Positions 1 to 44,342 of a stretch of 44,342 nucleotides of DNA are shown here, one piece after another. This stretch comes from a virus, in the IMG/VR virus record IMGVR_UViG_3300037467_000252, positions 1-44,342 of that record. One strand, written 5' to 3'. The position numbers and the translations under genes were made by a program. Under the pieces are notes generated by a model. It did no database searches and was not told where the DNA came from. It saw only the letters and a program-made list of their open reading frames with translations. Numbering within the stretch: position 1 is the stretch's first letter; every line of letters starts with the position of its first letter.

Positions 1-127
1 ACCAACGACCTCAGAATGTCTGATAGAAAAATGTGAGACGGCATCGACAAACTCCAGGCGGCCGGTCTCCCCCGTGCCCACGCGCGCCCGCGGTATCGCG
101 TAGGGGCGCCCTCGCGCGCACGGAGTG
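1..127. repeat. Left copy of an exact 127-bp terminal direct repeat (identical to 44216..44342)
   Basis: Read directly. Bases 1-127 (ACCAACGACCTCAGAATG...GCGCACGGAGTG) recur without mismatch as the last 127 bases of the window. Confidence 0.95.
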
Positions 128-148
128 GCAACCACGCGCGCCCGCGGT
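78..148 (+). repeat. 17-bp direct repeat CCACGCGCGCCCGCGGT (78-94 and 132-148)
   Basis: Two exact copies. One lies inside the 127-bp terminal repeat and one just outside it. Confidence 0.9.
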
Positions 149-229
149 GGTCTATCTCCACACCTTCCACCACCACACTGGTCTAACCCATTGATTTCAC
201 TAGGGGTGTGGGAGATCTGACATCCCAAC

Positions 230-512
230 GCGCACCACTCGCGCACCATACGCGCGCATGATGGGGCACTAGATCTGGTAGCCTAGTGGCCTAGAAAGGC
301 ACGACAGGCACAAGATGTTGTGCCGTGCGCTTGGTGTGGGGTGTATCAATCCGTTTTCGCACGCCTAGCGCACCATTGGCGCACCACAAGCGCACCACAA
401 GCGCACGCCTAGCGCACCACAAGCGCCACGCTGGCACAGCCCTTCAAGCGCACCACAAGCGCACCGGTAGCGCACCGATCGAACCGCTTCGGCACAGCCC
501 TTCAAGCGCACC
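230..512 (+). repeat. Array of at least 11 same-strand GCGCACC(A) motifs, partly in 11-bp phase
   Basis: GCGCACC starts at 230, 241, 368, 379, 390, 412, 448, 459, 470 and 506, with a variant GCGCACG at 401. The runs 368-412 and 448-470 are spaced exactly 11 bp. An AT-rich tract follows at about 575-640. Confidence 0.85.
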
Positions 513-513
513 A
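433..513 (+). repeat. 23-bp direct repeat GGCACAGCCCTTCAAGCGCACCA (433-455 and 491-513)
   Basis: Two exact copies embedded in the GCGCACC array. Confidence 0.9.
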
Positions 514-930
514 TTTCGACGGCTCACAGCCTACCCAAAACACCGCCACAAGCGCCACAAACGCACCGCCACGTGATTTTTTTTCGTTTGTTTTGACAGT
601 GGCTTAGGCCTCATTTCGAGGTCCATCAGTGATTTTTTTGGAATGCAGGGGTGGACAGCATTCCGGGATGGGATTACAACTCTGTCCATCGGCAGCGGCA
701 ACGCAGCCGGTCAGACCGAAGGAAACGCCGTGCGGGGCACCGGAGGTCGAGGTCTTTGACAATGTGCATCTAACGGCGCGCCGAAGGGCTCACCTAGAAC
801 GGGTGAGCGAGGCGGGTCGATAGGAACCAAGGGGACCGCTGTGAAGCGGGCTCGGGAGGGTTCCACACAACTCACAAGGCGCCATCAGGCGGGTGAGCTG
901 TGCCCTAACCCTTCCACCCTGGAGTTTCTC

Positions 931-1674
931 ATGAACGGTGCAATCATCTACCGCGGTCCCTCGATGCTGGACGGCGCTCCGATCGTGGTTGTGGCAACGG
1001 GCCTCGATGGCAAGTTTCGCAACTCTAAGACGGGCGCTCTCGTGCAAACCTGGATCATGCGGGACGATGTGAGCCCGGTCGAGGCGGTCAAGTCTGGCCT
1101 CGATGCGTCCATCTGCGGGGGCTGTGCTCATCGTGGGACCATCGAGGCGGGCAAGAACGTCGGCCGGTCCTGCTACGTCAAGGTTTTCCAGGCCCCGCTT
1201 GTGGTCTGGAAGACGGCGAAGGCGGGCAAATACGAGACCGTCGAGGCGGGCGAACTGGCCTCGATTGGCGAAGGCAAGCGCATCCGTCTCGGCTCCTACG
1301 GCGATCCTGCCGCGGTGCCTATGGCGGTCTGGGATGCCTTCCTGGCGAAGGCGGATGCCTTCACGGGCTACACCCATCAGTGGCGCGAGGCGGATCTGTC
1401 TCGCTACGTCATGGCCTCCTGTGACAGCGAGGCGGACTACATCGAGGCGAAGGCGAGGGGGTATCGGACCTTCCGCATCCGTCCCTCGATTGAGGCGCCC
1501 TTGAACCGGCGCGAAGTGGTGTGCCCTGCCTCGAAGGAGGCGGGCTACAAGACAACCTGCGCAAGCTGTGTCGCTTGTGGCGGTCACGGGGCGAAGGCGA
1601 AGGCGGACATTGCCATCGTCATCCACGGACAGGCGGCCCAAACGAAGGCGTATGCCGCTCGAATTGCGGCCTGA
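931..1674 (+). CDS. Hypothetical Cys-rich early protein (first gene from the left end)
   Basis: Part of ORF 841..1674. ATG 931 has GGAG 6 nt upstream. The translation is protein-like with CGGCAH and CASCVACGG cysteine clusters. I recognise no family. Confidence 0.6.
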   Translation: MNGAIIYRGPSMLDGAPIVVVATGLDGKFRNSKTGALVQTWIMRDDVSPVEAVKSGLDASICGGCAHRGTIEAGKNVGRSCYVKVFQAPLVVWKTAKAGKYETVEAGELASIGEGKRIRLGSYGDPAAVPMAVWDAFLAKADAFTGYTHQWREADLSRYVMASCDSEADYIEAKARGYRTFRIRPSIEAPLNRREVVCPASKEAGYKTTCASCVACGGHGAKAKADIAIVIHGQAAQTKAYAARIAA

Positions 1675-1676
1675 TG

Positions 1677-1692
1677 TATGCACCATCGAGGA
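1677..1692 (+). promoter_or_regulatory. Weak variant of the CTATSCACC intergenic motif (TATGCACCATCGAGGA)
   Basis: Lies between stop 1674 and ATG 1702. It shares CACCATCGAGGA with the copy at 42234. Confidence 0.3.
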
Positions 1693-1701
1693 TCATTCGA
1701 C

Positions 1702-1815
1702 ATGCTCAAAGAAACCGACACCACACCGGTGCTGATCGAGGCGGGCGAGTACTTCGCCCTCTCAGCCTCGGTCCTCGGCTCGATCCTCTTCGGAGTGATC
1801 ATGTTCATCCACTAA
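1702..1815 (+). CDS. Small hydrophobic protein (37 aa)
   Basis: ATG with GAGGA 9 nt upstream. Translation is MLKETDTTPVLIEAGEYFALSASVLGSILFGVIMFIH. It falls below the ORF-track length cut-off. Confidence 0.35.
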   Translation: MLKETDTTPVLIEAGEYFALSASVLGSILFGVIMFIH

Positions 1816-1816
1816 A

Positions 1817-1874
1817 GGGCGAAACTAGGCGGGCACCCGTCTAGTCCAGGCGTGAGGCGCCTGCTGATGAGCCC
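1817..1874 (+). ncRNA. Hammerhead ribozyme motif, type II (HH1); predicted scission after C1846
   Basis: GGGC 1817-1820. GAAA 1821-1824. Stem III 1824-1832 with 1837-1845. GUC 1844-1846. Stem I CAGGCG 1847-1852 with CGCCUG 1858-1863. CUGAUGA 1864-1870. GCCC 1871-1874 pairs with GGGC. Confidence 0.75.
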
Positions 1875-1914
1875 ATCAGTCAACTCTTGGCCCACCTACA
1901 GGCGAGACAGAGCC

Positions 1915-2109
1915 ATGGAAATCGTTCACCTTGTGCATCTGGTCGGTGAGTACAACGAGGTCATTGGCGTCTTCGCCAATACGCTCTTCGCGGTGTCCCT
2001 GCTCCATGGCGGGCACCACTACATCATGGTCCATGTCCGCCGCTGGCGCATCGCCAAGCGCAAGGGCCACCCGGTCAACAAGGCCGAGGAGATCCGCGAG
2101 CTGATCTAG
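1915..2109 (+). CDS. Hypothetical protein (64 aa)
   Basis: Internal ATG of ORF 1852..2109. The longer form would run through HH1. Confidence 0.45.
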   Translation: MEIVHLVHLVGEYNEVIGVFANTLFAVSLLHGGHHYIMVHVRRWRIAKRKGHPVNKAEEIRELI

Positions 2110-2132
2110 GCGGGCTCGCACAGCTTCCCACA

Positions 2133-2197
2133 GGGCGAAACGTCGGGCGCCGGTTCGGTGCCCTTCGTCCAGGCGTCAAGCGCCTGCTGATGAGCCC
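2133..2197 (+). ncRNA. Hammerhead ribozyme motif, type II (HH2); predicted scission after C2169
   Basis: GGGC 2133-2136. GAAA 2137-2140. Stem III 2140-2152 with 2156-2168 (2x2 internal loop). GUC 2167-2169. Stem I 2170-2175 with 2181-2186. CUGAUGA 2187-2193. GCCC 2194-2197. Confidence 0.75.
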
Positions 2198-2222
2198 ATC
2201 AGAATGTCCGAAGGAGCACAGT

Positions 2223-2321
2223 ATGCACGCTCTTGAGTTGCTGGGAGCCCTGTTCCTGGCGGTCGGTGCCACCACCGGTCTCGCCTTCGCGCTGGTCTAC
2301 TTCGCGGAGGAGTACCTGTGA
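2223..2321 (+). CDS. Small membrane protein (32 aa)
   Basis: AAGGAG lies 6 nt upstream of the ATG. Translation is MHALELLGALFLAVGATTGLAFALVYFAEEYL. Confidence 0.35.
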   Translation: MHALELLGALFLAVGATTGLAFALVYFAEEYL

Positions 2322-2488
2322 TGCCGACCTATCGCATCGAGAAGGTTCGCAGCGGCTGGGCCGTGACTGCGGACCATGGCGAGGCGTCACCAACCTTCCT
2401 CGCCAAGTACGACACCCGCAAGCAGGCCCGCACCATGGCTCGGCTCATGGCGGGCTGGCGCGGTCGAGTGGTGGAGGTGCGGGCATGA
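2321..2488 (+). CDS. Hypothetical protein (55 aa)
   Basis: TGATG overlap with the previous ORF. Translation starts MPTYRIEKVRSGWAVTADHGEASPTFLAKYDTRKQART. Confidence 0.4.
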   Translation: MPTYRIEKVRSGWAVTADHGEASPTFLAKYDTRKQARTMARLMAGWRGRVVEVRA

Positions 2489-2568
2489 TCCTCGTCATCA
2501 CCCTCGCCATCCTCGCCATGGGCTGTGTCGGCCTCCTCGTCTGTGACTGGGGGGAGGACGACCAGTGA
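2485..2568 (+). CDS. Tiny membrane protein (27 aa)
   Basis: ATGA overlap with the previous ORF. Translation is MILVITLAILAMGCVGLLVCDWGEDDQ, the tail of track ORF 2233..2568. Confidence 0.3.
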   Translation: MILVITLAILAMGCVGLLVCDWGEDDQ

Positions 2569-2789
2569 TCGACCCACAAGGCGCTCTCATCATCCTCTGG
2601 CTGGTCTTCTGCGCCGGCTGGATCGCCTACTGGGCCGGTGGTTGCCTCTGGCGCAACATCATCCGCCCCTGGCTGGAAATCTGGCGCAGCACAGAAGGCT
2701 TCGGCCGGCTCGTGCTGGTCTACCTCTCCCTCTGCATCGTGGTGCCGGTCGGGCTGGCGCTCCTGACCTTCTTCGGGCGGCACCATTGA
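2565..2789 (+). CDS. Membrane protein (74 aa, two hydrophobic segments)
   Basis: Track ORF. GTG start overlaps the previous stop (GTGA). Confidence 0.5.
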   Translation: MIDPQGALIILWLVFCAGWIAYWAGGCLWRNIIRPWLEIWRSTEGFGRLVLVYLSLCIVVPVGLALLTFFGRHH

Positions 2790-2962
2790 GGATCAAGCCT
2801 CTGTTCCAACGAGGCGACTTCGCCATCGGCCAGCGCATCCTCTTCGGTGCGCCGGTCATCAAGGGCACGGTGACCGCGGTGCGGCCGACCATGCTCTCGG
2901 TCCTGACGGAGGCGGGCGAGAACAAGCTCATCGCCTTCGTCCAGGTCCGCGCGACGCTCTAA
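2786..2962 (+). CDS. Hypothetical small protein (58 aa, possible TTG start)
   Basis: The tail of ORF 2525..2962 is protein-like (RIKPLFQRGDFAIGQRILFGAPVIKGTVTAV...). TTG 2786 overlaps stop 2787-2789. Confidence 0.3.
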   Translation: MRIKPLFQRGDFAIGQRILFGAPVIKGTVTAVRPTMLSVLTEAGENKLIAFVQVRATL

Positions 2963-2964
2963 GC

Positions 2965-3029
2965 CCGCCTGAAGAGGCCCCTGACGAGGGCCGAAACCTC
3001 CTCTGGTTGTGAGCCAGGGGCGGTCGCGG
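2965..3029 (+). ncRNA. Hammerhead ribozyme motif, type I (HH3); predicted scission after C3025
   Basis: Stem I CCGC 2965-2968 with GCGG 3026-3029. CUGAAGA 2969-2975. Stem II GGCCC 2976-2980 with GGGCC 2988-2992. GAAA 2993-2996. Stem III 2996-3006 with 3014-3024 (one U-C mismatch, one G-U pair). GUC 3023-3025. Confidence 0.7.
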
Positions 3030-3060
3030 CATGTCCGCATGTATGCAGGAGTGGAATGCT

Positions 3061-3546
3061 ATGGCCAAAGTGAAGGTCTACTGGAACGTCCGCGCCGGCC
3101 TCTGGAGCGTCATGGATGCTCGCACCCGGCGGGTTCTCGGAAGCGCGACCCAGGTGCTGATTCGGGATGCAACATTTCTCGTAAGCGAGGCTGGACGAGA
3201 GCGTGTCAAGCGCGAACGCTGCAAAAACGTGCATGCCTTCGTAATAGGCGATTTGGAGGCCGCGATCTGGCACTCAGCGCCTGAGGGTGCTGCCGCTTGT
3301 GAATGGGACTGGAAGCCTATGCACAACAATTACCTCCGCAACGTTGCAAATCAGCGGGGGATAAGGGTCACGTACAATCCTTATAGGGATCAAGGGTTTA
3401 GGGAGGTGCTGTCCGGTCGGCCTGTGGACAACTCGCCGGCTGCCTACCTCACCTGGGACTGCGCCGGATCTGAGGACTTGACGCCTAAGCCTCGGGTGAT
3501 GATGTTCGACCCAGGATGCGAACACAACGAGAACAAAGCTGCCTGA
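3061..3546 (+). CDS. Hypothetical protein (161 aa)
   Basis: Internal ATG of ORF 3031..3546 with AGGAG 9 nt upstream. Translation starts MAKVKVYWNVRAGLWSV and includes KNVHAFVIGD. G+C is lower than in the flanks. Confidence 0.6.
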   Translation: MAKVKVYWNVRAGLWSVMDARTRRVLGSATQVLIRDATFLVSEAGRERVKRERCKNVHAFVIGDLEAAIWHSAPEGAAACEWDWKPMHNNYLRNVANQRGIRVTYNPYRDQGFREVLSGRPVDNSPAAYLTWDCAGSEDLTPKPRVMMFDPGCEHNENKAA

Positions 3547-3605
3547 CGAGGCCCGCGAGGGGCCGAAACCTAGGGAGTAATTAAAATGCTCCCGATGGTC
3601 GCAGC
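3538..3605 (+). ncRNA. Hammerhead ribozyme motif, type I (HH4); predicted scission after C3600
   Basis: Stem I GCUGC 3538-3542 with GCAGC 3601-3605. CUGACGA 3543-3549, where UGA 3544-3546 is the stop of the upstream ORF. Stem II GGCCC 3550-3554 with GGGCC 3560-3564. GAAA 3565-3568. Stem III ACC 3568-3570 and GGGAG 3573-3577 with CUCCC 3589-3593 and GGU 3597-3599. GUC 3598-3600. Confidence 0.75.
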
Positions 3606-3772
3606 CAAGGTGTCACACAAAAGTCACCAATGCTGACTCCGCTGCCTCTAAAAAACCCCACGGAGGGGGCAAACGGCCGCGGTGAAAGACGCACCCGGAG
3701 AGCTGTGCGAGGTAGGGATGCAACCCGGCCCGCTTACCGTGAGCGCCACAACCACAACAAGAGATCACGCTG

Positions 3773-4054
3773 ATGAGACGGGACAAGCTGAACGGTATCA
3801 GTCTCAGAATGCCGTTCGTTGGGGAGGTGACGCTGCTCACTCTCCAGGGCGATTGGAAGGGTGACGGAGAACACCCGCGGCCGTTCCTGTGCCGATACCA
3901 AGAGCCCAACGACCCAGCCGTGCAGTACAACATCGGCTGGCTATCTATCCTTCGCGATCCGCCGGGGGGTTCGATCGCGCACAACGGACTCGTGATCAAG
4001 GCGCTGGGTTGCGCCACGGCAGTGCGAGCCGTTATCCTCGCACTGATAAGCTAA
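3773..4054 (+). CDS. Hypothetical protein (93 aa)
   Basis: Track ORF. It is more protein-like than the overlapping minus-strand ORF. I recognise no motif. Confidence 0.35.
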   Translation: MRRDKLNGISLRMPFVGEVTLLTLQGDWKGDGEHPRPFLCRYQEPNDPAVQYNIGWLSILRDPPGGSIAHNGLVIKALGCATAVRAVILALIS

Positions 4055-4068
4055 CCACCCTAGGAACG
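4051..4068 (+). promoter_or_regulatory. CTATSCACC-family motif variant (CTAACCACCCTAGGAACG)
   Basis: Resembles the copy at 8450 (CGATGCACCCTAGGAATG). It lies upstream of the MarR-type gene. Confidence 0.35.
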
Positions 4069-4087
4069 TGATGCAGAGTCGCATACC

Positions 4088-4127
4088 TCCTCGGGTGAAT
4101 TGTTAACACATCCTTTCACCCGGAGGA
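4088..4127 (+). promoter_or_regulatory. Imperfect inverted repeat around a central GTTAAC (candidate operator or translational hairpin)
   Basis: TCCTCGGGTGA 4088-4098 pairs with TCACCCGGAGGA 4116-4127, with one bulged base. The right arm contains the GGAGGA Shine-Dalgarno of ATG 4133. Confidence 0.4.
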
Positions 4128-4132
4128 CGTAA

Positions 4133-4630
4133 ATGGGTCAACTAGACGTTGACGCTCTGAACGAGCGCAGTAAATCTGGCCTTCTGGCCACCATGGCCCT
4201 TTCAGGAGCGAACAGTGTGAGTGCGGGAGAACTGAAAAAGTTAATGGACCGCACACAGCGGGCACTGAAGTTCCAGCGGGAACAAGGTGATCTACTGACC
4301 CCACAGGCTCTGCAAATTATGTTCAACATAGCGTTAGAGCCCGGTATTACGATGCAGAACTTACAAAAGCCGACCGGGCTTAATCTTTCATCGGTCTCCA
4401 GAAATCTATCCGCCCTCGGGAAGTATCATCGTCTAGGGAAGGAAGGTCTGGACTTCTGCGAAACTGTGCAGGACCCAATCGAGCGGCGGCGCATGATCGC
4501 CTTCCTCACCAAGAAGGGCAGGGACTTCCTGTCCAACTACCTCACGATTCTGACGGGCGAGCCGGTCTGTATCGAGAGCCCTACGAGCCACGAGTGGCTT
4601 GCCCGGCGGCACCGCCTAGCGAGCCGCTGA
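4133..4630 (+). CDS. MarR-family winged-helix transcriptional regulator (candidate lysogeny regulator)
   Basis: wHTH signature ITMQNLQKPTGLNLSSVSRNLSALGK followed by ETVQDPIERRRMIAFLTKKGRDFL. Confidence 0.7.
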   Translation: MGQLDVDALNERSKSGLLATMALSGANSVSAGELKKLMDRTQRALKFQREQGDLLTPQALQIMFNIALEPGITMQNLQKPTGLNLSSVSRNLSALGKYHRLGKEGLDFCETVQDPIERRRMIAFLTKKGRDFLSNYLTILTGEPVCIESPTSHEWLARRHRLASR

Positions 4631-4638
4631 TCCTAACG

Positions 4639-4667
4639 CCCCTGAGGCTCTACCTCGGGGGCTTTAG
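4639..4667 (+). terminator. Hairpin CCCCUGAGG-CUCUA-CCUCGGGGG followed by CUUU
   Basis: 9-bp stem with one U-G pair. It lies between the MarR-type gene and the convergent tRNA. The U-tract is short. Confidence 0.4.
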
Positions 4668-4680
4668 GCCGTTGTGAGGA

Positions 4681-4769
4681 TGGTGGCGGCTGCGGGAATC
4701 GAACCCGCACACTGCTCTCGCAGCGAGGCATTTTAAGTGCCTTGCGTCTACCGGTTTCGCCAAGCCGCC
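4681..4769 (-). tRNA. tRNA-Leu, anticodon UAA, type II (long variable arm), CCA encoded
   Basis: The reverse complement folds by hand. Acceptor GGCGGCT/AGCCGCC. 3-bp D stem GCG/CGC. Anticodon stem AGGCA/TGCCT with loop CTTAAAA. 17-nt variable arm with stem GCTGC/GCAGT. T arm GCGGG-TTCGATT-CCCGC. Then ACCA. Total 89 nt. Confidence 0.85.
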
Positions 4770-4776
4770 AGCGGAC

Positions 4777-4794
4777 CTATCCACCATAGGAGAG
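4777..4794 (+). promoter_or_regulatory. CTATSCACC-family motif (CTATCCACCATAGGAGAG) immediately upstream of int
   Basis: It begins 8 nt beyond the tRNA 5' end. Its AGGAGAG doubles as the int Shine-Dalgarno. Confidence 0.45.
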
Positions 4795-4800
4795 CTTACC

Positions 4801-5835
4801 ATGGCGACCCAGAGAGGATCGTCCTGGCAGGGGACGGTCTACCACAAGGATCTACCTGCCGGCCGCGCTCGTCGCAACTTCGAGACCAAGCGCGATGCCG
4901 AGGCCTGGGAGCACGAGAGCAAGGCCCGCCTCATGAGGGGTGAGCCCATCGACATGGGGGAGGGGCACAAGGCCGGGCAGGCTCGCAAGGCCGGTCAGCC
5001 CTACACCCTCCGCGAGCTGGTCGAGCACGTCGCTCACACCCGCTGGAAGAAGACGAGCGCCGGCATCCGGCAGCACCGGAACGCCGAGCTGATCGCGGCC
5101 ATCATCGGCCCCAACAAGCCCATCTCCGCGGTCACCAAGGTGGACGTGGACAAGGCCCGCGGCCAGCTCCTCCAGGAGGGCAACTCGCCGGCCACGGTGA
5201 ACCGCAAGGTGGCCGCGCTCTCCACGTGCCTGTCCGAGGCTGTCGAGAGCGGCATCATCCAGGCCAAGCCCAAGATGGCGAAGTACAAGGAGAGCGAGCA
5301 CCGCATCCGCCGGTTCACCCCGGAGGAGGAGGCCTTCGCCCTCTCGTTCTTCGAGCGCATGAGCGAGCCTGACATGGCCGACTACGTGGCCCTGTCCCTC
5401 GATACCGGCATGCGCCAGGGCGAGGTGCTCAACCTCCGCTTCCAGGACTGCGACACCGATAAGGCCACGGTATGGGGCACAGGAGCCAAGTCAGGGCGCA
5501 CGAGGAGCATTCCCCTCACCAAGCGCGCGAAGGCCGTCCTGGAGCGCCGTAGGGCAGGGAAGAGGCCTTCTGATCGCGTCTTCGAGGGCTGGGACCGGTA
5601 CGGCCTGGACCGGCACTGGACGAAGCTCCGGGAGGCCCTGCACCTGACGGACGATGCCCAGTTCGTGCCCCACGTCCTGCGTCACGAGTTCTGCTCGCGG
5701 CTCGCGGACAAGGGCCTGAACGCGGCGGTGATCCAGCAGCTCGCCGGCCACTCGACGCTCGCCATCACGCAACGGTACATTCACGTGAAGGCCGAGCATC
5801 TGGTCAGGGCCATTAGGGAGCTTGAAGCGGCATGA
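4801..5835 (+). CDS. int: Tyrosine recombinase / phage integrase
   Basis: C-terminal catalytic region HVLRHEFCSRLADKGLN...LAGHSTLAITQRYIH carries the R, H-x-x-R and Y signature. The protein has an N-terminal SAM-like core-binding region. Confidence 0.9.
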   Translation: MATQRGSSWQGTVYHKDLPAGRARRNFETKRDAEAWEHESKARLMRGEPIDMGEGHKAGQARKAGQPYTLRELVEHVAHTRWKKTSAGIRQHRNAELIAAIIGPNKPISAVTKVDVDKARGQLLQEGNSPATVNRKVAALSTCLSEAVESGIIQAKPKMAKYKESEHRIRRFTPEEEAFALSFFERMSEPDMADYVALSLDTGMRQGEVLNLRFQDCDTDKATVWGTGAKSGRTRSIPLTKRAKAVLERRRAGKRPSDRVFEGWDRYGLDRHWTKLREALHLTDDAQFVPHVLRHEFCSRLADKGLNAAVIQQLAGHSTLAITQRYIHVKAEHLVRAIRELEAA

Positions 5836-6533
5836 GTACGGTCACATTCGCGTCGCTGCTCAAGCCGTTCATGCCGGAAGTTGAGGAGGAGCTGGGAGGG
5901 GCGGGACCCGCGAGGGACTTCCTCTACGCCCAGGCCTTCAGGCAGATGATCAAGGATGGCCCCTACGTGTGGGAGATGTCGCCCGAGGAGCGCACTGCCC
6001 TGGCGGCTCAGTTCTACGAGGAGTTCGCTGCTGCGGACGAGGAAGGCCAGGAGCACATGATGATGATCGTGTGCGAGACCCTGGAGTGGATCAATCAAAC
6101 GATGGGTCCGCGGAAGCCGGCCATCATAGTGGAGGCACGCGAGAGGCCGCCTGACGACTTCGACGTGGTTGAGCTAACCACGGCTATTAGCGAGCGGAAC
6201 GAGGCCGAACGGAAGGCTCGCAGGAACGAGCTTCAGCGGGCACGCCGGAAGCGCAAGGCCGAGGCGAAGGCACGGCAGAAGCAGCTGGATGCTGGCCGGG
6301 CGAAGTGGCTGACGGCGCTTCGCTCGAAGCTGACCACCGAGGATCTCAAGGGCTGGCTCTCCGAGACGAAGCCGTATGTCGTTATGGATGCCTGTTCCTC
6401 GGCCGCCTGGGACCAGATCAAGCCGTGGTCCGCGATCACTGCGTGGGCCGAGGCCCGCAAGCGGGAAGAGGAGATTGCGGACGAGATCGTGCTCTTCCTC
6501 AACGGCCATGGCACTCGGAACTCGGACGAATAA
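5832..6533 (+). CDS. Hypothetical protein (233 aa) translationally coupled to int
   Basis: ATGA overlap with the int stop. Acidic N-terminal half and a basic coiled-coil-like middle (RKARRNELQRARRKRKAEAKARQKQ). Confidence 0.6.
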   Translation: MSTVTFASLLKPFMPEVEEELGGAGPARDFLYAQAFRQMIKDGPYVWEMSPEERTALAAQFYEEFAAADEEGQEHMMMIVCETLEWINQTMGPRKPAIIVEARERPPDDFDVVELTTAISERNEAERKARRNELQRARRKRKAEAKARQKQLDAGRAKWLTALRSKLTTEDLKGWLSETKPYVVMDACSSAAWDQIKPWSAITAWAEARKREEEIADEIVLFLNGHGTRNSDE

Positions 6534-6736
6534 AGAGACTAGTCTCATGCGCTAGGTTGTGGCGGAAACCACCGCCACAGCCACACCACAAGGTCCAAGT
6601 GTTAACCACCGGTGCATACGTTTCCCCTGCAACATCAAGGTGTTGCACGGCAAATGCAACCAACCGAGGAGACTTAAAAGCCCACCGACGCACTTTCCAT
6701 CATCGCAGAACAACCTGATCTGTCAGGTTTTGGAAG

Positions 6737-6772
6737 CCCGAGACGCTCTGTGCGCTCTCGGGTTTTCTGTTT
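6737..6772 (+). terminator. Intrinsic terminator (CCCGAGACGC-UCUGU-GCGCUCUCGGG followed by UUUUCUGUUU)
   Basis: A 7+3 bp G+C-rich stem with one bulge is followed by a T-rich tract. Confidence 0.6.
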
Positions 6773-6775
6773 CGC

Positions 6776-6804
6776 TTGACCTTTCCACCATCGCATTGTA
6801 TTCC
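6776..6804 (+). promoter_or_regulatory. Candidate host sigma70-type promoter TTGACC-N17-TATTCC
   Basis: It lies directly after the terminator and upstream of the kinase/RNAP block, which host RNAP must transcribe. The -10 element is only a partial match. Confidence 0.35.
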
Positions 6805-6888
6805 GCTCTCACGCCACGCGGTGGCGCCGCCACGCGCAATTTGGTGGCGGTGAGGGCGGCAATTTCTGCCACCGATAGGAGACGCACC

Positions 6889-7800
6889 ATGGCCCAGTTC
6901 AAGGAACCCGGTTTCAAGACCCGTCAGGCCCAGCGTGACGCTGCCCGCGGCATCAAGGCCGTCCCGTGCCTGCCCATGAAGCATGGCCTCACGAGCTGGA
7001 TGGCGCGTGAGCTGCGGGACATCGCCAAGGCCAACCCATGCCGCGAGCTGGCCTTCGGCCGAGGCATCGTGTCGAAGATCAACGACGATCCGTTCCGTCT
7101 GCCCGGCCACAAGGCCCGCATGGAGGGTCCGAAGCGGGCTCGTCCGAAGCAGCTCTGGGACAACTTCGACACCCACAAGCCGCGTGGCTGGCGCACCGTC
7201 TTCCGCGACAGCTACCGCTACACGCGCCGCCTGGAGGCCCACGGCTGGCATCCGCTCGGCTCGGGCTTCTACAGCACCGTCCTGGGCAAGCCGGGGTGCG
7301 ACAAAGTGATCAAGATCTGCCGGAACGGCGGTGACGATGCCTACCCGATGTTCGCGGCGTGGTGCGTCCAGAACCCGAGCCCGTACCTGCCCCGCATCCA
7401 CTCGTTCAAGCGCCACAACGGCTTCTACGTGGTGGTCCTGGACCGGCTGGCGAAGACCACGGCGCAGGCTCACCCGAACACCGGCTGGTCGCAGACCACG
7501 GACATGATCCAGGGCTACGCCCGCGGCCACGAGTTCAACGGCATGCGCAAGGTGTTCCTCAACTCGGTCTGGAACGAGCTGCCGGGCCTCAAGGAGGTGG
7601 TGGACCGCTTCGTGGAGGAGTTCCGCGGGCAGGCCTCCTTCGACATGCACGACGGCAACTGGATGCTGACCGAGGACGGCAAGCTGGTCATGACCGATCC
7701 GCTGGCTGGGACGAACACCGACAAGGCCAGCGAGCGCAACTCTAGCGTCAAGCGCATCCGGGGCGGCGCTCTCAGGGCCGCAGTGCGTCTTGCTGCCTGA
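6889..7800 (+). CDS. T7 gp0.7-like serine/threonine protein kinase
   Basis: Internal ATG of ORF 6559..7800 with AGGAGA upstream. LGSGFYSTV...VIKICRNGGDDAY...RHNGFYVVVLDRLAKT and ASFDMHDGNWML...VMTDP parallel my recollection of T7 gp0.7 (LGNGHFSAAY, VIKVGFKKEDSGAAY, RHAGCYTVVLDAL, ASFDMHSGNIMF, ITDP). Confidence 0.8.
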   Translation: MAQFKEPGFKTRQAQRDAARGIKAVPCLPMKHGLTSWMARELRDIAKANPCRELAFGRGIVSKINDDPFRLPGHKARMEGPKRARPKQLWDNFDTHKPRGWRTVFRDSYRYTRRLEAHGWHPLGSGFYSTVLGKPGCDKVIKICRNGGDDAYPMFAAWCVQNPSPYLPRIHSFKRHNGFYVVVLDRLAKTTAQAHPNTGWSQTTDMIQGYARGHEFNGMRKVFLNSVWNELPGLKEVVDRFVEEFRGQASFDMHDGNWMLTEDGKLVMTDPLAGTNTDKASERNSSVKRIRGGALRAAVRLAA

Positions 7801-7802
7801 AA

Positions 7803-7820
7803 CTATGCACCATAGGGAAC
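7803..7820 (+). promoter_or_regulatory. CTATSCACC-family motif (CTATGCACCATAGGGAAC), the most T7-promoter-like copy
   Basis: CACCATAGGGAAC 7808-7820 matches the T7 consensus CACTATAGGGAGA at 10 of 13 positions. Confidence 0.5.
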
Positions 7821-7827
7821 CATTTCG

Positions 7828-8400
7828 ATGATCGTAAACAGCCAAACCTTCCACACCACCCTGAAGGGCAAGCCCATCAGCTTCGAGGTCCGCTCGGTCA
7901 CGATCGACGGACAGCCCTGGCTCTCGATGTTCGACGTGTGCTTCGCCGCCGACATCTTCCTGAAGCGGGACAAGGACTACCCGACCGTGGACAGCACGGA
8001 CGTGAAGGCCAACAGCCCCGCGGGGAGCTGGCGGCTGATCAAGGGCATCCAGAAGCGCGGTCCCGGCCTGATCATGCTGCGCCGTGATGCGGTCGAGCGC
8101 ATCCTGGAGCTGTCGTTCCGCCACTACGCCGATGAGTTCAAGGCGTGGATCACGGAGACCTTCTACACCGTCCGCACCGAGTTCATGAACGACTGGCTGG
8201 CCGCTCGGGGCCTCAACTGGTCGCTCGCCAAGTGCCAGCGGTTCGGTGTCATGGCCACGTTCCGAGCCCAGAAGCTCGGCGTGAAGCTGACCCACAAGGC
8301 CACGGCTGTCGTGTCCGGTGGCAAGCTCGTGGACACTCGCCTCGTTGAGTGGCCGATTGGCTTTCTCGACCAAGCACTTAGCGAGTTCTCGGGCCAATAA
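7828..8400 (+). CDS. Bro-N-like DNA-binding domain protein
   Basis: The N-terminal FEVRSVTIDGQPWLSMFDVCFAADI resembles the Bro-N/KilA-type fold signature. The assignment is tentative. Confidence 0.5.
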   Translation: MIVNSQTFHTTLKGKPISFEVRSVTIDGQPWLSMFDVCFAADIFLKRDKDYPTVDSTDVKANSPAGSWRLIKGIQKRGPGLIMLRRDAVERILELSFRHYADEFKAWITETFYTVRTEFMNDWLAARGLNWSLAKCQRFGVMATFRAQKLGVKLTHKATAVVSGGKLVDTRLVEWPIGFLDQALSEFSGQ

Positions 8401-8418
8401 CCAGGACCACTCGGGATG
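8401..8418 (+). promoter_or_regulatory. CCAGGACCA-family motif, variant (CCAGGACCACTCGGGATG)
   Basis: It shares CCAGGACCAC with the copies at 22665 and 44031. Confidence 0.35.
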
Positions 8419-8449
8419 CTCCTAAACGATGCCCGAAGTGTGTCCTGAA

Positions 8450-8467
8450 CGATGCACCCTAGGAATG
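8450..8467 (+). promoter_or_regulatory. CTATSCACC-family motif variant (CGATGCACCCTAGGAATG)
   Basis: Intergenic, about 36 nt upstream of the RNAP ATG. Confidence 0.4.
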
Positions 8468-8502
8468 ATCCTTATCAACGACCACGCATAGACGAGGTAC
8501 TT

Positions 8503-11010
8503 ATGTTGACCATTGAAGAGGCCATGAAGCTCCCGAACTGGGAGAAGCAAGTGGAACTGGAGACTGACATGCGGTCTCTGGGCATCGAGAAGTTCCGCAA
8601 AGCTGCGGAGAAGGCCAAGGAGAAGGGTCAGGAGACCCGGATGGCTCCAGTTCGTCGGATGATGATGGACTGCCACGAGAAGATGCTGGCTGCTCTCCAC
8701 GAGTTCTACGCTGAAGTGGAGGCCAAGAAGGCTGGTCGGAAGCACAGCGCCTATCCGTACCTGAAGGGCATCGACCACGACGATCTGGTCGCCCACGTCA
8801 CGTGCAAGGTGATCCTGGACGTGGCCGTGCAGCGCAAGAGCCTGTCCCACGTCGCGGTCATGATCGCGGAGATGCTGGAGGACGAGTGCAACTTCCGCCT
8901 GTTCAAGGAGCAGCACACCGCCGGCTACCTGAAGGCCGTGTCCCGCGTGAAGGACAAGACCAACGAGCGGTACAAGCGCCGGTCGGTGAAGGCCACCGCC
9001 TCGAAGCTGGGCGTCAACCTCCTGGAGTGGCCCAAGCGGGACATGATCCTGGTCGGCTCGAAGCTGATCGAGATGTTCGTGGAGGCGACCCACTGCGCCC
9101 GTGTGGTCGATGGGATCGGCAACCGGAAGGTGGTCGAGAGCGTGCCTGAGGCCCGTGCCTGGATCGAGGAGGAGAGCCGGCGCTGTGAGCTGCTGACCCC
9201 GCAGTTCATGCCCTGCGTGATCCCCCCGAAGCCTTGGACGACCCCCTACGATGGCGGCTACTGGACCGGCCGGGCGCGCAAGCTGGTGCTCGTGAAGAGC
9301 CCGAACCGGGCCTACCTGGAGGATCTGGCCGACCGGCCCATGCCGATCGTCTACGAAGCCGTCAACGCGCTCCAGAACACCGGCTGGACGATCAACCCGA
9401 TGGTCCTGGAGGTCATGACCTACCTCTTCGAGCGGAACTCCCGCTGCGGTGTGGTTCCGCAGATCAAGCCCGAGAAGGAGCCTAACAAGCCCCTGTGGCT
9501 GGTCGAGGGGCTGAAGAAGGAGGACATGACCCCCGAGCAGCTCGAAGAGTTCATCGCCTGGAAGAGCCGGGCCACCGAGGTGATCGAAAAGAACGCCGAG
9601 CAGCTCTCCAAGAGCAAGGCCTTCAACTCGATGCTGGGCGTGGCCAAGCGGTTCAAGGACGAGCCCGCCTTCTACTACCCCTACCAGCTCGACTGGCGCG
9701 GCAGGGCCTACCCCGTGGGCCTGTACCTCCAGCCGCAGGGCAACGACGCCCAGCGTGGCCTGCTCCAGTTCGCTGACTTCGTGGCGATCGAGGACCAGGA
9801 GGCTGCGAACTGGCTGATGATCCACGGCGCAGGACTGTGGGGCAAGGACAAGGGCTCCTTCGAGGACCGCATCGAGTGGATCAAGCAGCACGAGGAGCAG
9901 ATCTTGGCCTCCGCGGCTGACCCGTATGAGAACCGCTTCTGGATGTACGAGGAGAAGGACGGCAAGATGGAAGACAACGAGAAGGCTTGGCAGGCCCTGG
10001 CGTTCTGCTTCGACTACGCTGGCTTCGTGCGTGAGGGCTTCGGATACATGAGCCGTCTGCCGATCCAGATGGACGGGACTTGCAACGGCATCCAAAATTT
10101 CTCGGCTATGCTGCTCGATGCCCGCGGCGGTGCTGCGGTCAACCTCGTCCCGGCTGACAAGCCCCAGGACATCTACTCCGAGGTCATGGAGGTGGTGAAG
10201 AAGCGGGTCGCGGAGGATGCTGCCGGTGGTGGCAAGCCCGAGCACCAGCCCCTGGCGGCTATGTGGGTCGGCAACATCGTCCGCAAGACGGTCAAGCGGC
10301 CCGTCATGACCCTGGCCTACGGCGCCAAGCGGTTCGGCTTCACCGACATGGTGATGCAGGACACGGTGCGCGTCTGGAAGAAGGAGCGTCCCGAGACGTA
10401 TCCCTTCGGCACGCAGGGGTTCCAGGCTGCGCAGTACCTGGGTGGCTGCATCTGGGAGGCTGTGCAGGAGGTCGTGGTCGCCGCTGCGGAGGCCATGCGC
10501 TGGCTCCAGGACGTAGCCCGCATCGTCTCGAAGGAGGCTCTGCCGATCTACTGGACCACGCCCACGGGCCTGCTCGTCCTCCAGCAGTACAAGCTGCGGG
10601 ACATGAAGAACATCCTGATGACGTTCCAGAAGGTCGTGATCCAGGTGAAGGTGGACAAAGGATCAGACAAGCTGGACAGCAAGAAACAGGCATCCGGCAT
10701 CGCACCGAACTGGGTCCATAGTCTGGATGCCAGCCACATGATGCTGACTATTCGTGCCGCAATGCATGCAGGGGTGCATAGTTTCTCTTTCATCCACGAC
10801 AGCTACGGCACCCACGCGGGCAACACGGCGAAGCTCGCGCGCATCCTGCGGGAGGAGTTCGTGAAGATGTACGGGGGCGAGTGCGTCCTGGAGCGGTTCC
10901 GTGCCGACCTCCAGGCCATGCTGCCCGAGGGCGTTCAGCTCCCACCGGTGCCGACCAAAGGCTCGCTGGACCTGAACCAAGTGCTTGAGAGCAAATTCTT
11001 TTTTGCCTGA
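8503..11010 (+). CDS. T7-like single-subunit DNA-directed RNA polymerase
   Basis: PIQMDGTCNGIQNFSAMLLD, FIHDSYGTH and the C-terminal FFFA match T7 RNAP motifs (DGSCSGIQHFSAML, HDSFGT, FAFA). ATG 8503 has GAGG upstream. The longer track start at 8452 would overlap the intergenic motif. Confidence 0.95.
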   Translation: MLTIEEAMKLPNWEKQVELETDMRSLGIEKFRKAAEKAKEKGQETRMAPVRRMMMDCHEKMLAALHEFYAEVEAKKAGRKHSAYPYLKGIDHDDLVAHVTCKVILDVAVQRKSLSHVAVMIAEMLEDECNFRLFKEQHTAGYLKAVSRVKDKTNERYKRRSVKATASKLGVNLLEWPKRDMILVGSKLIEMFVEATHCARVVDGIGNRKVVESVPEARAWIEEESRRCELLTPQFMPCVIPPKPWTTPYDGGYWTGRARKLVLVKSPNRAYLEDLADRPMPIVYEAVNALQNTGWTINPMVLEVMTYLFERNSRCGVVPQIKPEKEPNKPLWLVEGLKKEDMTPEQLEEFIAWKSRATEVIEKNAEQLSKSKAFNSMLGVAKRFKDEPAFYYPYQLDWRGRAYPVGLYLQPQGNDAQRGLLQFADFVAIEDQEAANWLMIHGAGLWGKDKGSFEDRIEWIKQHEEQILASAADPYENRFWMYEEKDGKMEDNEKAWQALAFCFDYAGFVREGFGYMSRLPIQMDGTCNGIQNFSAMLLDARGGAAVNLVPADKPQDIYSEVMEVVKKRVAEDAAGGGKPEHQPLAAMWVGNIVRKTVKRPVMTLAYGAKRFGFTDMVMQDTVRVWKKERPETYPFGTQGFQAAQYLGGCIWEAVQEVVVAAAEAMRWLQDVARIVSKEALPIYWTTPTGLLVLQQYKLRDMKNILMTFQKVVIQVKVDKGSDKLDSKKQASGIAPNWVHSLDASHMMLTIRAAMHAGVHSFSFIHDSYGTHAGNTAKLARILREEFVKMYGGECVLERFRADLQAMLPEGVQLPPVPTKGSLDLNQVLESKFFFA

Positions 11011-11012
11011 AC

Positions 11013-11030
11013 CTATGCACCCCCGGAACA
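11013..11030 (+). promoter_or_regulatory. CTATSCACC-family motif (CTATGCACCCCCGGAACA)
   Basis: It lies directly after the RNAP stop. Confidence 0.5.
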
Positions 11031-17746: not shown

Positions 17747-17948
17747 TGTTCTGTACCACGCCTGGAAGGCACCGTTCAGGACCAAGAGTGACTACGCCCG
17801 GTACGCGGCAGATCACGTGGCCATGGCCGCCTCTGATGGGTTCATCACGACCCGTCACGCGACCGGCCTGTATGGCAACACCTGGATGATCACAGCCCGT
17901 GGTCTCCGGTACATGGAGCAGATGGGCTATGACACAGCAGAAGGTTGA
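17733..17948 (+). CDS. Hypothetical protein (about 71 aa, GTG start assumed)
   Basis: Tail of ORF 17631..17948. The start is chosen to minimise overlap with the DNAP gene. Confidence 0.35.
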   Translation: MKLTDVLYHAWKAPFRTKSDYARYAADHVAMAASDGFITTRHATGLYGNTWMITARGLRYMEQMGYDTAEG

Positions 17949-18582
17949 GTACATCGACCACATGGGGGACGACCTCCGTGTGATTAACGCCGCTCGGGTG
18001 TCGTTCGACAAGGAGAGCGAGTGGGAGGTTCCAGGTGCGCTGAAGTACGACGACGAGCGTCTACTTCGCTACCTCGCCAACCATAAGCACTGGACCCCGT
18101 TCAGTCACAACCAGATCACCCTGCGTGAGACCGTGAGCATCCCGATTGCTCGCCAGCGGTTCAAGCACAAGATCGGCTTCACGGAGAACGAGATCTCCCG
18201 CCGTTACGTGGACGACAAGCCGCTGTTCTTCTCCCCCGTGTGGAGGAAGCGGCATGTGAAGGCCAAGCAAGGCTCGGCAGAGGCGTTCGATGAGATGGGT
18301 CAAGCCATGCTCAACGACGCCTACGCCGAGCACTTGGAGCGGTCTGAAGGGCTCTACAACCTGTTCCTGTCGAACGGTGTGTGCCCCGAACAGGCGCGAA
18401 TGCTCCTGCCGCAGTCCATGATGACCTCGTACTACATCACAGGCTCACTCGCCGCCTTCGCCCGAGCCTACGGCCTGCGCCACGACGCGCATGCCCAGAA
18501 GGAAATCCAGGACCTCGCCGCGGACTGGGACCGGATCATCCGGCCTCTCTTCCCCGAGTCCTGGTCTGCTCTCGTGGACTAA
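17929..18582 (+). CDS. thyX: ThyX-like FAD-dependent thymidylate synthase (divergent signature)
   Basis: GDDLRVINAARVSF, HWTPFSH, ...EISRRY, LPQSMMTSYYITGSLAAFARAYGLR and HAQKEIQDLA parallel ThyX blocks. The RHR-X7-S motif reads KHK-X8-S here. Confidence 0.7.
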   Translation: MTQQKVEYIDHMGDDLRVINAARVSFDKESEWEVPGALKYDDERLLRYLANHKHWTPFSHNQITLRETVSIPIARQRFKHKIGFTENEISRRYVDDKPLFFSPVWRKRHVKAKQGSAEAFDEMGQAMLNDAYAEHLERSEGLYNLFLSNGVCPEQARMLLPQSMMTSYYITGSLAAFARAYGLRHDAHAQKEIQDLAADWDRIIRPLFPESWSALVD

Positions 18583-44027: not shown

Positions 44028-44046
44028 GAAGGACCACTAGGAACGG
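44028..44046 (+). promoter_or_regulatory. CCAGGACCA-family motif (GAAGGACCACTAGGAACGG) pointing toward the right terminus
   Basis: No gene lies downstream. Its position is comparable to the T7 right-end promoter phiOR. Confidence 0.4.
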
Positions 44047-44215: not shown

Positions 44216-44342
44216 ACCAACGACCTCAGAATGTCTGATAGAAAAATGTGAGACGGCATCGACAAACTCCAGGCGGCCGGTCTCCCCCGTGCCCACGCGC
44301 GCCCGCGGTATCGCGTAGGGGCGCCCTCGCGCGCACGGAGTG
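44216..44342. repeat. Right copy of the exact 127-bp terminal direct repeat
   Basis: Identical to 1..127. The match starts at A44216 and runs to the window end. Confidence 0.95.

Follow-up and report, generated by a model that had tools for sequence, protein, structure and literature searches.

A conserved array of four hammerhead ribozyme motifs among the small early genes of a temperate T7-like phage

Hammerhead motifs and genes at the locus

The sequence considered here is the virus record IMGVR_UViG_3300037467_000252, analysed over its full length of 44,342 nt (the window). Within positions 1817 to 3605 it contains a series of four hammerhead ribozyme motifs, HH1 to HH4, which lie at the boundaries of the small early genes of what is, judged by its gene content, a temperate T7-like podovirus (Autographiviridae, temperate group). 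A preliminary description, made from the sequence alone, had listed four hammerheads of mixed types I and II, with predicted cuts after 1846, 2169, 3025 and 3600. The whole window was scanned on both strands using a descriptor (CUGANGA, GAAA and UH plus three helices, allowing each of the three circular permutations and taking hairpin energies from ViennaRNA). It returned exactly these four motifs, all on the + strand, and every coordinate proved right.

HH1 and HH2 are type II hammerheads. HH1 (1817-1874) begins with the first strand of stem II, GGGC (1817-1820), followed by GAAA (1821-1824) and the stem III hairpin (1824-1845). The predicted cut follows C17 at position 1846, after which come the stem I hairpin (1847-1863), CUGAUGA (1864-1870) and the second strand of stem II, GCCC (1871-1874). 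HH2 (2133-2197) would be cut after C17 at 2169, and its 3' half consists of the stem I hairpin (2170-2186), CUGAUGA (2187-2193) and GCCC (2194-2197), with a tail, AUCAG, directly behind it (2198-2202). The 3' halves of HH1 and HH2 have a 36-nt stretch in common, which is 94% identical (family D20).

HH3 and HH4 are type I hammerheads. In HH3 (2965-3029), stem I is formed by CCGC (2965-2968) with GCGG (3026-3029), enclosing CUGAAGA (2969-2975), stem II (2976-2992, with the loop CUGACGA), GAAA (2993-2996) and stem III (2996-3024), and the cut would follow C17 at 3025. In HH4 (3538-3605), stem I is formed by GCUGC (3538-3542) with GCAGC (3601-3605), and the enclosed parts are CUGACGA (3543-3549), stem II (3550-3564), GAAA (3565-3568) and a stem III (3568-3599) that has a CCUAG...CGAUGG internal-loop motif; here the cut would follow C17 at 3600.

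The cores of all four read CUGA(U/A/C)GA, GAAA and GUC without any deviation, and the residues required of the catalytic core (C3 U4 G5 A6 N7 G8 A9, G12 A13 A14, A15.1-U16.1, and an H17 that is not G) are present in four out of four. The core-adjacent pairs are all canonical, the standard pairs 1.1-2.1, 10.1-11.1 and 15.1-16.1 having been demanded by the descriptor. Three helices surround each core, the stem hairpins having energies of -8.6 to -17.9 kcal/mol and the open stems 4-5 bp.

The motifs are on the sense strand, as had been claimed: all the genes called in the region are on the + strand. Its + strand open reading frames (ORFs) have Shine-Dalgarno sequences and a high G+C content at third codon positions (GC3), and mostly have homologues in the closest relative, IMGVR_UViG_2606217776_000005 (loci L001 and L006; loci outside the window are numbered with an L). 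Upstream of HH1 are ORFs at 841-1674 (277 aa) and 1702-1815 (37 aa). Between HH1 and HH2 lies an ORF of 64 codons (1915-2109, GC3 0.85), which has no Pfam or PHROG match and is 82% identical to its homologue in L006 over residues 1-51. Between HH2 and HH3 is a block of overlapping small ORFs (2223-2962), several of them hydrophobic, with a GC3 of 0.80-0.92. Its members are 2223-2321 (32 aa), 2321-2488 (55 aa), 2565-2789 (74 aa), 2786-2962 (58 aa, with a TTG start), and a doubtful one at 2485-2568 (27 aa). The 55-aa and 58-aa proteins, and weakly the 32-aa protein (E 0.009), have relatives in L006 at 41-64% identity; nothing in L006 significantly matches the 74-aa and 27-aa ORFs. No Pfam or PHROG family was matched by the block ORFs scanned, which were all but 2485-2568, with 2223-2321 compared against Pfam only. 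The ORF between HH3 and HH4 (3061-3546, 161 codons) belongs to the mycobacteriophage L5 gp82 family (Pfam PF25735, Phage_L5_gp82, E 1.7e-24; phrog_586), and is 70% identical in L006. It is followed by an ORF at 3773-4054.

An independent gene caller, run on an identical Logan contig, gives the same ORFs apart from the 27-aa one. The three transcript units first proposed stand, with one reservation: 1847-2169 does carry the 64-codon ORF and 3026-3600 the 161-codon ORF, but of the five ORFs assigned to 2170-3025 only four are called independently. Likewise HH1, HH2 and HH3 are strictly intergenic, but HH4 overlaps the last codons of the 161-codon ORF: the 5' strand of its stem I (3538-3542) is in the end of the ORF, and the UGA stop codon (3544-3546) is inside the CUGACGA core.

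The arrangement is that of clustered prophage hammerheads, with four motifs in 1.8 kb, on the gene strand, at ORF boundaries, and 1.2 kb upstream of an integrase gene. No + strand terminator-like site was found inside the array. A minus-strand terminator-like hairpin with a T-run is present at 3655-3670, 50 nt downstream of HH4, and is not conserved in L006; terminator-like sites in the region as a whole (7, against 5.3 expected) show no excess over chance.

HH1, HH2 and HH3 are each preceded, at a distance of 12-65 nt, by one of three weakly similar 26-nt stretches (1727-1752, 2096-2121 and 2898-2923), which are 73-85% identical and have the core GCUGAUCNAGGCGGGC. Stem III of HH1 contains the UAGGCGGGC part of these stretches too. 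They may be traces of duplicated gene-plus-ribozyme modules.

Significance of the hammerhead matches

Dinucleotide shuffles of the window give 0.24-0.36 loose descriptor matches per window. Matches as strong as the weakest of the real hammerheads occurred three times in 200 shuffles, that is, 0.015 per window.

Two covariance models were built, both from hammerheads that are not related to those of the window: ten type II hammerheads of 50 nt, from metagenome and viral contigs, for R1, and 24 type I hammerheads of viral contigs for R2. These 24 are the ones that aligned cleanly out of 36 type I seeds, whose joint MAFFT alignment had a poor 3' end. On the window, R1 finds HH1 with 53.6 bits (E 3.5e-16) and HH2 with 53.2 bits (E ~1e-16), the next best match having 11.6 bits. 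R2 finds HH3 with 53.2 bits (E 2.6e-15) and HH4 with 47.9 bits (E 1.5e-13), the next best having 14.7 bits.

Conservation and covariation

All four ribozymes are present in the closest relative, at the same positions, with the same types and with intact cores. The L006 proteins in and around the array are mostly 41-82% identical to those of the window, with the regulator at 83% and the integrase at 90%. The stem III sequences in L006 are fully different from those of the window, yet they are still paired; the HH1 ortholog is kept with a different stem III sequence and the HH3 ortholog with an unrelated one.

A DNA pattern that fixes only GAAAC, stem I and CUGANGAG, and leaves stems II and III free, gives 30 matches at 28 loci in metagenomes. 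A 4-bp stem II is found in all 30, with six different sequence pairs (GGGC, GGAC, GGUC, AGGC, GAGC and GAUC), and so is a stem III hairpin, though the pattern does not demand it. In the type I seed alignment (A3), 96.4% of cells are standard pairs and 9 of the 14 pairs are altered on both sides, and its observed score was reached by none of 500 shuffles. In the type II alignment (A6, 96 distinct sequences), which was fitted to the model and is hence biased toward structure, 97.9% are paired and 12 of the 15 pairs are altered on both sides.

Predicted folds and an alternative hairpin

For HH1 and HH4 the minimum-free-energy fold is the active fold, which in HH1 is the active three-way junction; for HH2 and HH3 the active fold is 2.7 and 2.9 kcal/mol above the minimum, respectively. 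By inspection, loop I consistently reads U-N-N-N-G and an A is found before stem II. A pseudoknot between loop I and the tail was considered for the type II copies and rejected: loop I does not covary with the tail, and the tail pairs with the core.

This pairing forms a second hairpin in both type II motifs, on the + strand. In HH1 (1864-1879), CUGAUG (1864-1869) pairs with CAUCAG (1874-1879) and thereby sequesters the 5' half of the core, and in HH2 (2187-2202) the hairpin is completed by the tail AUCAG at 2198-2202. The sequence N'UCAG directly follows stem II in 15 of 103 distinct type II hammerheads, and in every one of these N' is complementary to N7 of the core (8 U:A, 7 C:G, none mismatched). 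By comparison, TCAG is present at the corresponding positions in 1.9% of background windows. The 6-bp hairpin, CUGANG with CN'UCAG, is found not only in HH1 and HH2 of the window but also in L001, L005, L009, L010, L011, L015, L019, L111 and L135, and a comparison of HH2 with its L006 ortholog shows a switch from U:A to C:G at N7/N'. The complementarity argues that the alternative helix is real. It and the catalytic core are mutually exclusive. In the predicted fold of the cleaved product, the 5' end of the downstream RNA consists of the stem I hairpin followed by the alternative hairpin, in tandem. We interpret the helix as a post-cleavage trap and 5'-end cap, or possibly an off state.

The stem II loop of HH3 (2981-2987) is CUGACGA, a second copy of the core heptamer. 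It recurs in HH3 of L006 and in the unrelated type I hammerheads of L044 and L135, and the related loops CUGACCA and GUGACA are common. The recurrence suggests a conserved tertiary contact or an alternative register.

The phage and its promoters

The window contains T7-type genes on one strand, identified by PHROGs matches: RNA polymerase, primase/helicase, DNA polymerase, tail fibre and large terminase subunit. That of the RNA polymerase (8452-11010) matches phrog_414 with E 2.7e-254, and the nearest RNA polymerases, at 46-48% identity, are those of the Rhizobium phages RHEph01, RHEph21 and TRX32-1 and of Pseudomonas phage LUZ100.

Downstream of the array is a lysogeny module (4133-5835). It is composed of a gene for a winged-helix, weakly MarR-like regulator (4133-4630, + strand; phrog_9665, with a weak Pfam MarR_2 match), a tRNA-Leu (4684-4769, - strand, 58.2 bits) and a tyrosine integrase gene (4801-5835, + strand, phrog_1). 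The tRNA is complete, with the anticodon UAA and a long variable arm, and is antisense between the regulator and the integrase. The layout of regulator, tRNA-Leu on the - strand, integrase and polymerase is the same as in LUZ100, whose authors suggested that the tRNA is a remnant of integration at a tRNA gene; the tRNA arrangement is also found in TRX32-1. Such a module has been discussed as the lysogeny module of temperate T7-like phages (PMC10134795).

The first phage-type promoter-like site, CCAGGACCAnTAGGAA, is at 8401-8416 on the + strand, directly upstream of the RNA polymerase gene. With zero or one mismatch it is found on the + strand at 8401, 11048, 11390, 13044, 19470, 22665 and 30817, and with two mismatches at 44028; matches of this type number 12 in all, compared to 0.94 expected. 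No good copy exists in 1-8400, that is, none upstream of or inside the array. Since there is no phage promoter before 8401, the array is in the part that host RNA polymerase would transcribe.

Between the lysogeny module and the polymerase gene, a 413-aa ORF (6559-7800) matches in its C-terminal part, over residues 225-392, a PHROG family (E 1.3e-21) whose annotation is T7 gp0.7-type protein kinase, a regulator of RNase III and RNase E. From this match, the phage may still act on host RNases.

Hammerheads in related phages and other viral contigs

The cultured Paadamvirus phages RHEph01 (JX483873, L157) and TRX32-1 (MW023914, L219) contain one type I hammerhead each, at 2572-2638 (47.0 bits with R2) and 40327-40391 (45.7 bits), respectively. 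Both are upstream of MarR and integrase genes, and would be cut after 2633 of JX483873 and 40387 of MW023914. They are unannotated in the records, and no mention of either was found in the literature searched. In RHEph21 (MW980070, L218) there is a decayed copy at 562-607, with CUGAUGA, stem II and GAAAC retained and stem III gone. LUZ100 and Agrobacterium phage Pasto have no hammerhead. Descriptor matches in the integrase gene of Pasto and at 17872-17993 of RHEph01 were rejected as false positives, with long weak stems.

The hammerheads of the two cultured phages are of the same class as HH4. This class, a type I hammerhead with a CCUAG...CGAYGG stem III motif and compensatory changes in the surrounding stems, is found in the window, L006, RHEph01, TRX32-1, L103 and L155. 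No other hammerhead comes between such a copy and the integrase, and the copy is accompanied by a MarR-family regulator wherever one was identified. By this comparison, the last ribozyme before the lysogeny module is the conserved one. The internal-loop motif at the base of stem III, 5'-CCUA-N...N'-GAYGG-3' (a 2 x 3 loop with UA opposite GAY), is present in 14 of 255 hammerheads, from 13 loci and of both type I and type II, and its inner helix covaries freely. It is found in stem III of HH4 (3569-3599), in HH1 and HH4 of L006, in RHEph01 and TRX32-1, and in L103, L041, L155, L170 and L016.

Other T7-like relatives have other sets. L103, whose large terminase subunit is 59.5% identical, has types III-III-III-I between the terminase gene and the integrase, and L041 has a single type I. 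L037 has the order tail fibre, II, II, MarR, integrase, and in a Chelatococcus prophage a I + II pair precedes the polymerase gene by 2.4-3 kb. The exact type II pattern has no match in the GTDB species genomes, nor does a BLASTN search of cultured phages with the type II 3' half give any. BLASTN of 1-8000 against cultured phages leaves the array unmatched, only the 277-aa gene (841-1674) having distant DNA matches.

In viral contigs hammerheads are plentiful. A type I/III pattern matched at least 119 contigs, and among the 156 loci scanned there are many same-strand arrays, in which mixed types are frequent. Single-type arrays are exemplified by nine type II in L016, eight type II in L025 and eight type I in L101, and a mixed array, I-I-I-III-I-I-II-I, is found in L051 and L075. 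The largest, in L135 (IMGVR_UViG_3300020577_004875), packs 18-20 hammerheads of types I, II and III into 10.3 kb, most intervals holding a single ORF. Fourteen are found in a contig of 46 kb, IMGVR_UViG_3300036780_000230 (L112 and L145).

The placement of these motifs is not random. Among 236 type I and II hammerheads in a phage context, from the fetched loci, 67-74% have a Shine-Dalgarno sequence and start codon within 45 nt downstream, compared to 10.8% of random windows, and the median distance from hammerhead to start codon is 24-31 nt. Thus phage hammerheads are usually found a few tens of nucleotides before a ribosome-binding site.

A proposed role in cistron insulation

We propose, with a probability of roughly 0.6, that HH1-HH4 are active cis-acting ribozymes, which would cut the host-made + strand early RNA into cistron units and thereby insulate these from each other. 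In this scheme, for which we infer that the array is transcribed throughout, that the ribozymes cleave in vivo and that stability is affected, host RNA polymerase would transcribe the + strand of the early region across the array, and each ribozyme would fold co-transcriptionally and cut 3' of its GUC triplet, after 1846, 2169, 3025 and 3600. Between an upstream piece and a downstream piece running into the regulator/integrase module, three mRNAs would result: one of 323 nt encoding the 64-aa protein, one of 856 nt encoding the small, mostly hydrophobic proteins, and one of 575 nt encoding the L5-gp82-family protein. The 3' end of each upstream product would have the stable stem III hairpin and a 2',3'-cyclic phosphate. 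Each downstream product would begin with a 5'-OH, followed in the case of the type II ribozymes by two tandem hairpins, stem I and the alternative CUGAUG/CAUCAG helix. The likely benefit would be insulation: with defined and structured ends, the stability and translation of each cistron would be independent of its neighbours.

The preliminary description had likewise proposed that ribozymes segment a polycistronic early RNA, and on the sequence evidence this is plausible. Canonical hammerheads stand at the cistron boundaries of an early region that the host would transcribe, their stems covary, all four are conserved in L006, and most phage hammerheads are placed ahead of a Shine-Dalgarno sequence and start codon. 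Also in favour are the scores with R1 and R2, the rarity of equally strong matches in shuffles, active folds at or within 3 kcal/mol of the minimum free energy, an array free of + strand terminator-like sites and phage promoters, and the published cleavage of clustered prophage hammerheads (PMC3088659) and of type II copies in Desulfovibrio vulgaris (PMC8782182). To this extent the claim is supported, but as discussed below it is not new. The further claim that the processing is host-independent is an unsupported addition, and the phage retains the match to the T7 gp0.7-type kinase family. Taken together, a hammerhead subfamily missed by the Rfam gathering scores, the commonness in viral contigs of same-strand arrays with about one ribozyme per gene, and the placement close to ribosome-binding sites favour a general cistron-insulating role.

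A number of observations weigh against this proposal. Some concern the ribozymes themselves. Only 4 bp make up stem II in the type II copies, and likewise stem I in HH3, and the predicted energies favour a non-catalytic fold by 2.7 kcal/mol in HH2 and by 2.9 kcal/mol in HH3. The alternative helix could, as modelled, keep the type II copies inactive. Inspection gave no convincing pseudoknot linking loop I to the sequences that flank stem II, and the stem I-stem II tertiary contact required for fast cleavage at physiological Mg2+ was not identified. In addition, with the Rfam 15 gathering scores no hammerhead is reported in the whole window, nor at E up to 10. A scan of 1750-3700 at E up to 10 gives only HH2, as Hammerhead_II (RF02276) with 15.8 bits at 2133-2201, the gathering score being 37; twister, pistol, hatchet and HDV-like ribozymes have no match in these scans. 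A gathering score is an operational threshold and not a defining property of a hammerhead ribozyme, and the silence of Rfam is a shortfall of its models for this subfamily, not of the motifs. Because the subfamily does not reach the gathering scores, Rfam-based annotation misses it.

Others concern transcription and the fate of the RNA. A sigma-70 promoter scan of 1-8500 finds nothing on the + strand, and with no such promoter upstream it is an assumption that one polycistronic RNA spans the array. How a 5'-OH affects decay may vary by host (RNase J, for instance, degrades the 5'-OH RNA left by glmS ribozyme cleavage), and hence stability could change in either direction. Finally, hammerheads are sporadic in T7-like prophages. 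When the GTDB species genomes were scanned with an RNA polymerase profile, 57 T7-like loci were found, and only about 3 of these have a convincing hammerhead within 10 kb; the low count is due in part to the early region, which may sit far from the polymerase gene in some integrated prophages. Hammerheads are sporadic, and absent from LUZ100 and Pasto, and are thus not essential to this phage type.

Alternative explanations

The alternative that survives best, though we consider it unlikely, is that the main function is in the lysogeny decision. The HH4-class ribozyme would uncouple the early lytic genes from the module of small ORF, MarR-like regulator and integrase, and HH1-HH3 would be later and dispensable additions. 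The HH4-class ribozyme would do so either by ending early transcripts before the module or by giving the module mRNA a 5'-OH end and with it a different lifetime. In its favour, the HH4-class copy is the last before the integrase in all six genomes and loci listed above, among which the number of other hammerheads differs. The MarR and integrase genes of LUZ100 are co-transcribed as a unit of their own (PMC10134795), and bacterial hammerheads are often near integrase genes (Perreault et al., PMC3088659). Yet the same module is found with no hammerhead in LUZ100 and Pasto, the copy in RHEph21 is decayed, and HH1-HH3 are conserved in L006 as well as HH4. Moreover, the arrays of 8-18 hammerheads elsewhere punctuate ordinary runs of genes with no integrase nearby.

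Slightly less likely again is that the hammerheads are cassette boundaries or self-propagating passengers, which would provide homology for the recombination or duplication of modules of ribozyme plus small gene, cleavage being incidental or neutral. The near-identical 36-nt stretch of HH1 and HH2 would fit this, as would the identical stems I and II in many copies within single arrays (L025, L028). The enclosed genes vary between phages, as was also noted by Perreault et al. (PMC3088659), and the hammerheads themselves vary between close T7-like relatives (II-II-I-I, III-III-III-I, II-II or a single type I). However, the cores are intact in nearly every copy and the stems turn over with compensatory changes, and therefore selection appears to be for the folded ribozyme and not for DNA homology. 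The strand, and the position relative to ribosome-binding sites, are also strongly non-random.

We regard as improbable the idea that the excised RNAs are joined into circular or spliced RNAs, whether through a reversal of the hammerhead reaction or through a host RtcB-type ligase that acts on the 5'-OH and 2',3'-cyclic phosphate ends. Here the 323-nt RNA 1847-2169 would be the candidate: HH1 and HH2 are both type II, with the same stem II (GGGC/GCCC) and near-identical 3' halves, and likewise in L006, so the ends of this RNA can re-form a complete hammerhead. A circular mRNA for the 64-aa protein, with a viroid-like geometry inside a DNA phage, is equally improbable. The other two segments of the window are bounded by unlike types or by unlike stems I and their ends cannot re-form a hammerhead, neighbouring ribozymes in other arrays (L016) have incompatible stems II, and the alternative 5' hairpin would oppose re-association. 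In addition, a search by Perreault et al. for circles or spliced RNAs from their arrays gave none (PMC3088659).

Least probable of all is that the motifs are inactive relics or chance matches, with host RNases doing any processing: the motifs fall short of the Rfam gathering scores, a tertiary contact was not identified and the copy in RHEph21 shows that decay happens, but against this stand four perfect cores, the rarity of equally strong matches in shuffled windows (0.015 each), E values of ~1e-13 to 1e-16 from independent covariance models, and the retention of all four in L006 with compensatory changes.

Relation to known systems

The segmentation of early RNA proposed here has precedents. 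Perreault et al. (2011, PLoS Comput Biol; PMC3088659) reported hundreds of bacterial hammerheads, many of them near integrases or in prophages, and the first natural type II. Their clustered prophage hammerheads flank single genes or short gene blocks, with types I, II and III marked in a figure, and they inferred that long phage transcripts are processed into mRNAs of gene or operon length (PMC3088659). Cleavage in vitro was demonstrated for arrays of Clostridium scindens, Azorhizobium caulinodans and Agrobacterium tumefaciens, and the Agrobacterium array, in the context tail-ardA-marR-integrase, was cleaved in E. coli too (PMC3088659). A 2019 review by Weinberg, Weinberg and Hammann repeated the processing idea and called the function open, with more work needed. 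The preliminary description knew of no described case in which a mixed type I / type II array delimits cistrons in a T7-type early region. As a claim of novelty this does not hold, both the clusters and the processing idea being in Perreault et al. 2011 (PMC3088659) and mixed-type arrays being frequent in viral contigs: the four-ribozyme array is a new example of a known arrangement. Current thinking is not overturned, and the segmentation proposed here matches the standing hypothesis of the field.

The closest parallel is the triple array of A. tumefaciens C58, which, like that of the window, is on one strand within about 2 kb, flanks genes, and is near a marR-type regulator and an integrase downstream of tail genes. 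It encloses ardA, whereas the window array encloses genes for the 64-aa protein, small membrane-like proteins and the L5-gp82-family protein. The window has four ribozymes, compared to two or three in the arrays tested by Perreault et al.; those arrays are also smaller than the arrays of 8-20 in the viral contigs. The L037 layout of tail fibre, hammerheads, MarR and integrase, together with the ArdA gene that the T7-like phage Pasto has in its early region, suggests by analogy that the Agrobacterium element is a T7-like prophage. Within the same T7-like temperate lineage, RHEph01 and TRX32-1 (RNA polymerase ~48% identical) have a ribozyme of the same class and position as HH4, but only one as against four.

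Three type II hammerheads near phage-like genes in Desulfovibrio vulgaris were shown by cyPhyRNA-seq to cleave in vivo (Olzog et al. 2021; PMC8782182). These resemble HH1 and HH2 in type and in gene context, but are three copies at separate loci and do not form an array. In the literature that could be searched, no explicit link of hammerheads to T7-like phages or Autographiviridae was found. What the window adds is a clean and conserved case of four ribozymes arrayed among the early genes of a temperate T7-like phage, and the array points to RHEph01 and TRX32-1, cultured and inducible relatives that carry an HH4-class ribozyme. The by-products of the analysis are this class in cultured relatives, the covarying alternative helix, the stem III motif, the size and frequency of arrays, and the blind spot of Rfam.

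Two further comparisons are worth making. Host RNase III processes the T7 early transcript at sites between cistrons (Dunn and Studier). Like the array, the T7 sites are between the cistrons of a host-transcribed early region, and in both cases discrete mRNAs with a protective 3' hairpin are expected. In T7, however, a host protein cuts a long imperfect hairpin to give a 5'-phosphate and a 3'-OH, whereas in the window RNA catalysis is predicted to give a 5'-OH and a 2',3'-cyclic phosphate. The comparison is a functional analogy only, and host RNases may also matter here, given the T7 gp0.7-type kinase match. The RiboJ-type insulator of Lou et al. (2012) reportedly consists of a hammerhead and a downstream hairpin before a ribosome-binding site. 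As with RiboJ, HH1 and HH2 are predicted to remove the upstream context and to leave a structured 5' end with an extra hairpin before the Shine-Dalgarno sequence. Unlike RiboJ, they are natural and of another hammerhead type, and the downstream hairpin is made from the ribozyme's own core.

Other features of the window

The window has an exact 127-nt direct repeat at its ends, 1-127 being identical to 44216-44342, which leaves a unique genome length of 44,215 nt. The repeat is either an overlap from the assembly of a circle or (part of) a terminal repeat. Since the ends are identical, position 1 is arbitrary.

Upstream of the first early gene, at 354-502, there are about ten tandem 11-nt units with a consensus close to GCGCACCACAA, which may be iterons, operator sites or the repeat arrays known near the ends of T7-type genomes. 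A second repeated motif, CTATCCACCCCTGCA, is distinct from CCAGGACCAnTAGGAA and has 10 matches, compared to 0.59 expected. Two are on the - strand, at 644 and 10767. The others are on the + strand at 11013, 17537, 18584, 20660, 20901, 28186, 39330 and 41489. Most of the ten copies are between middle and late genes, and the motif could represent a second class of promoter, a processing site or a leader element.

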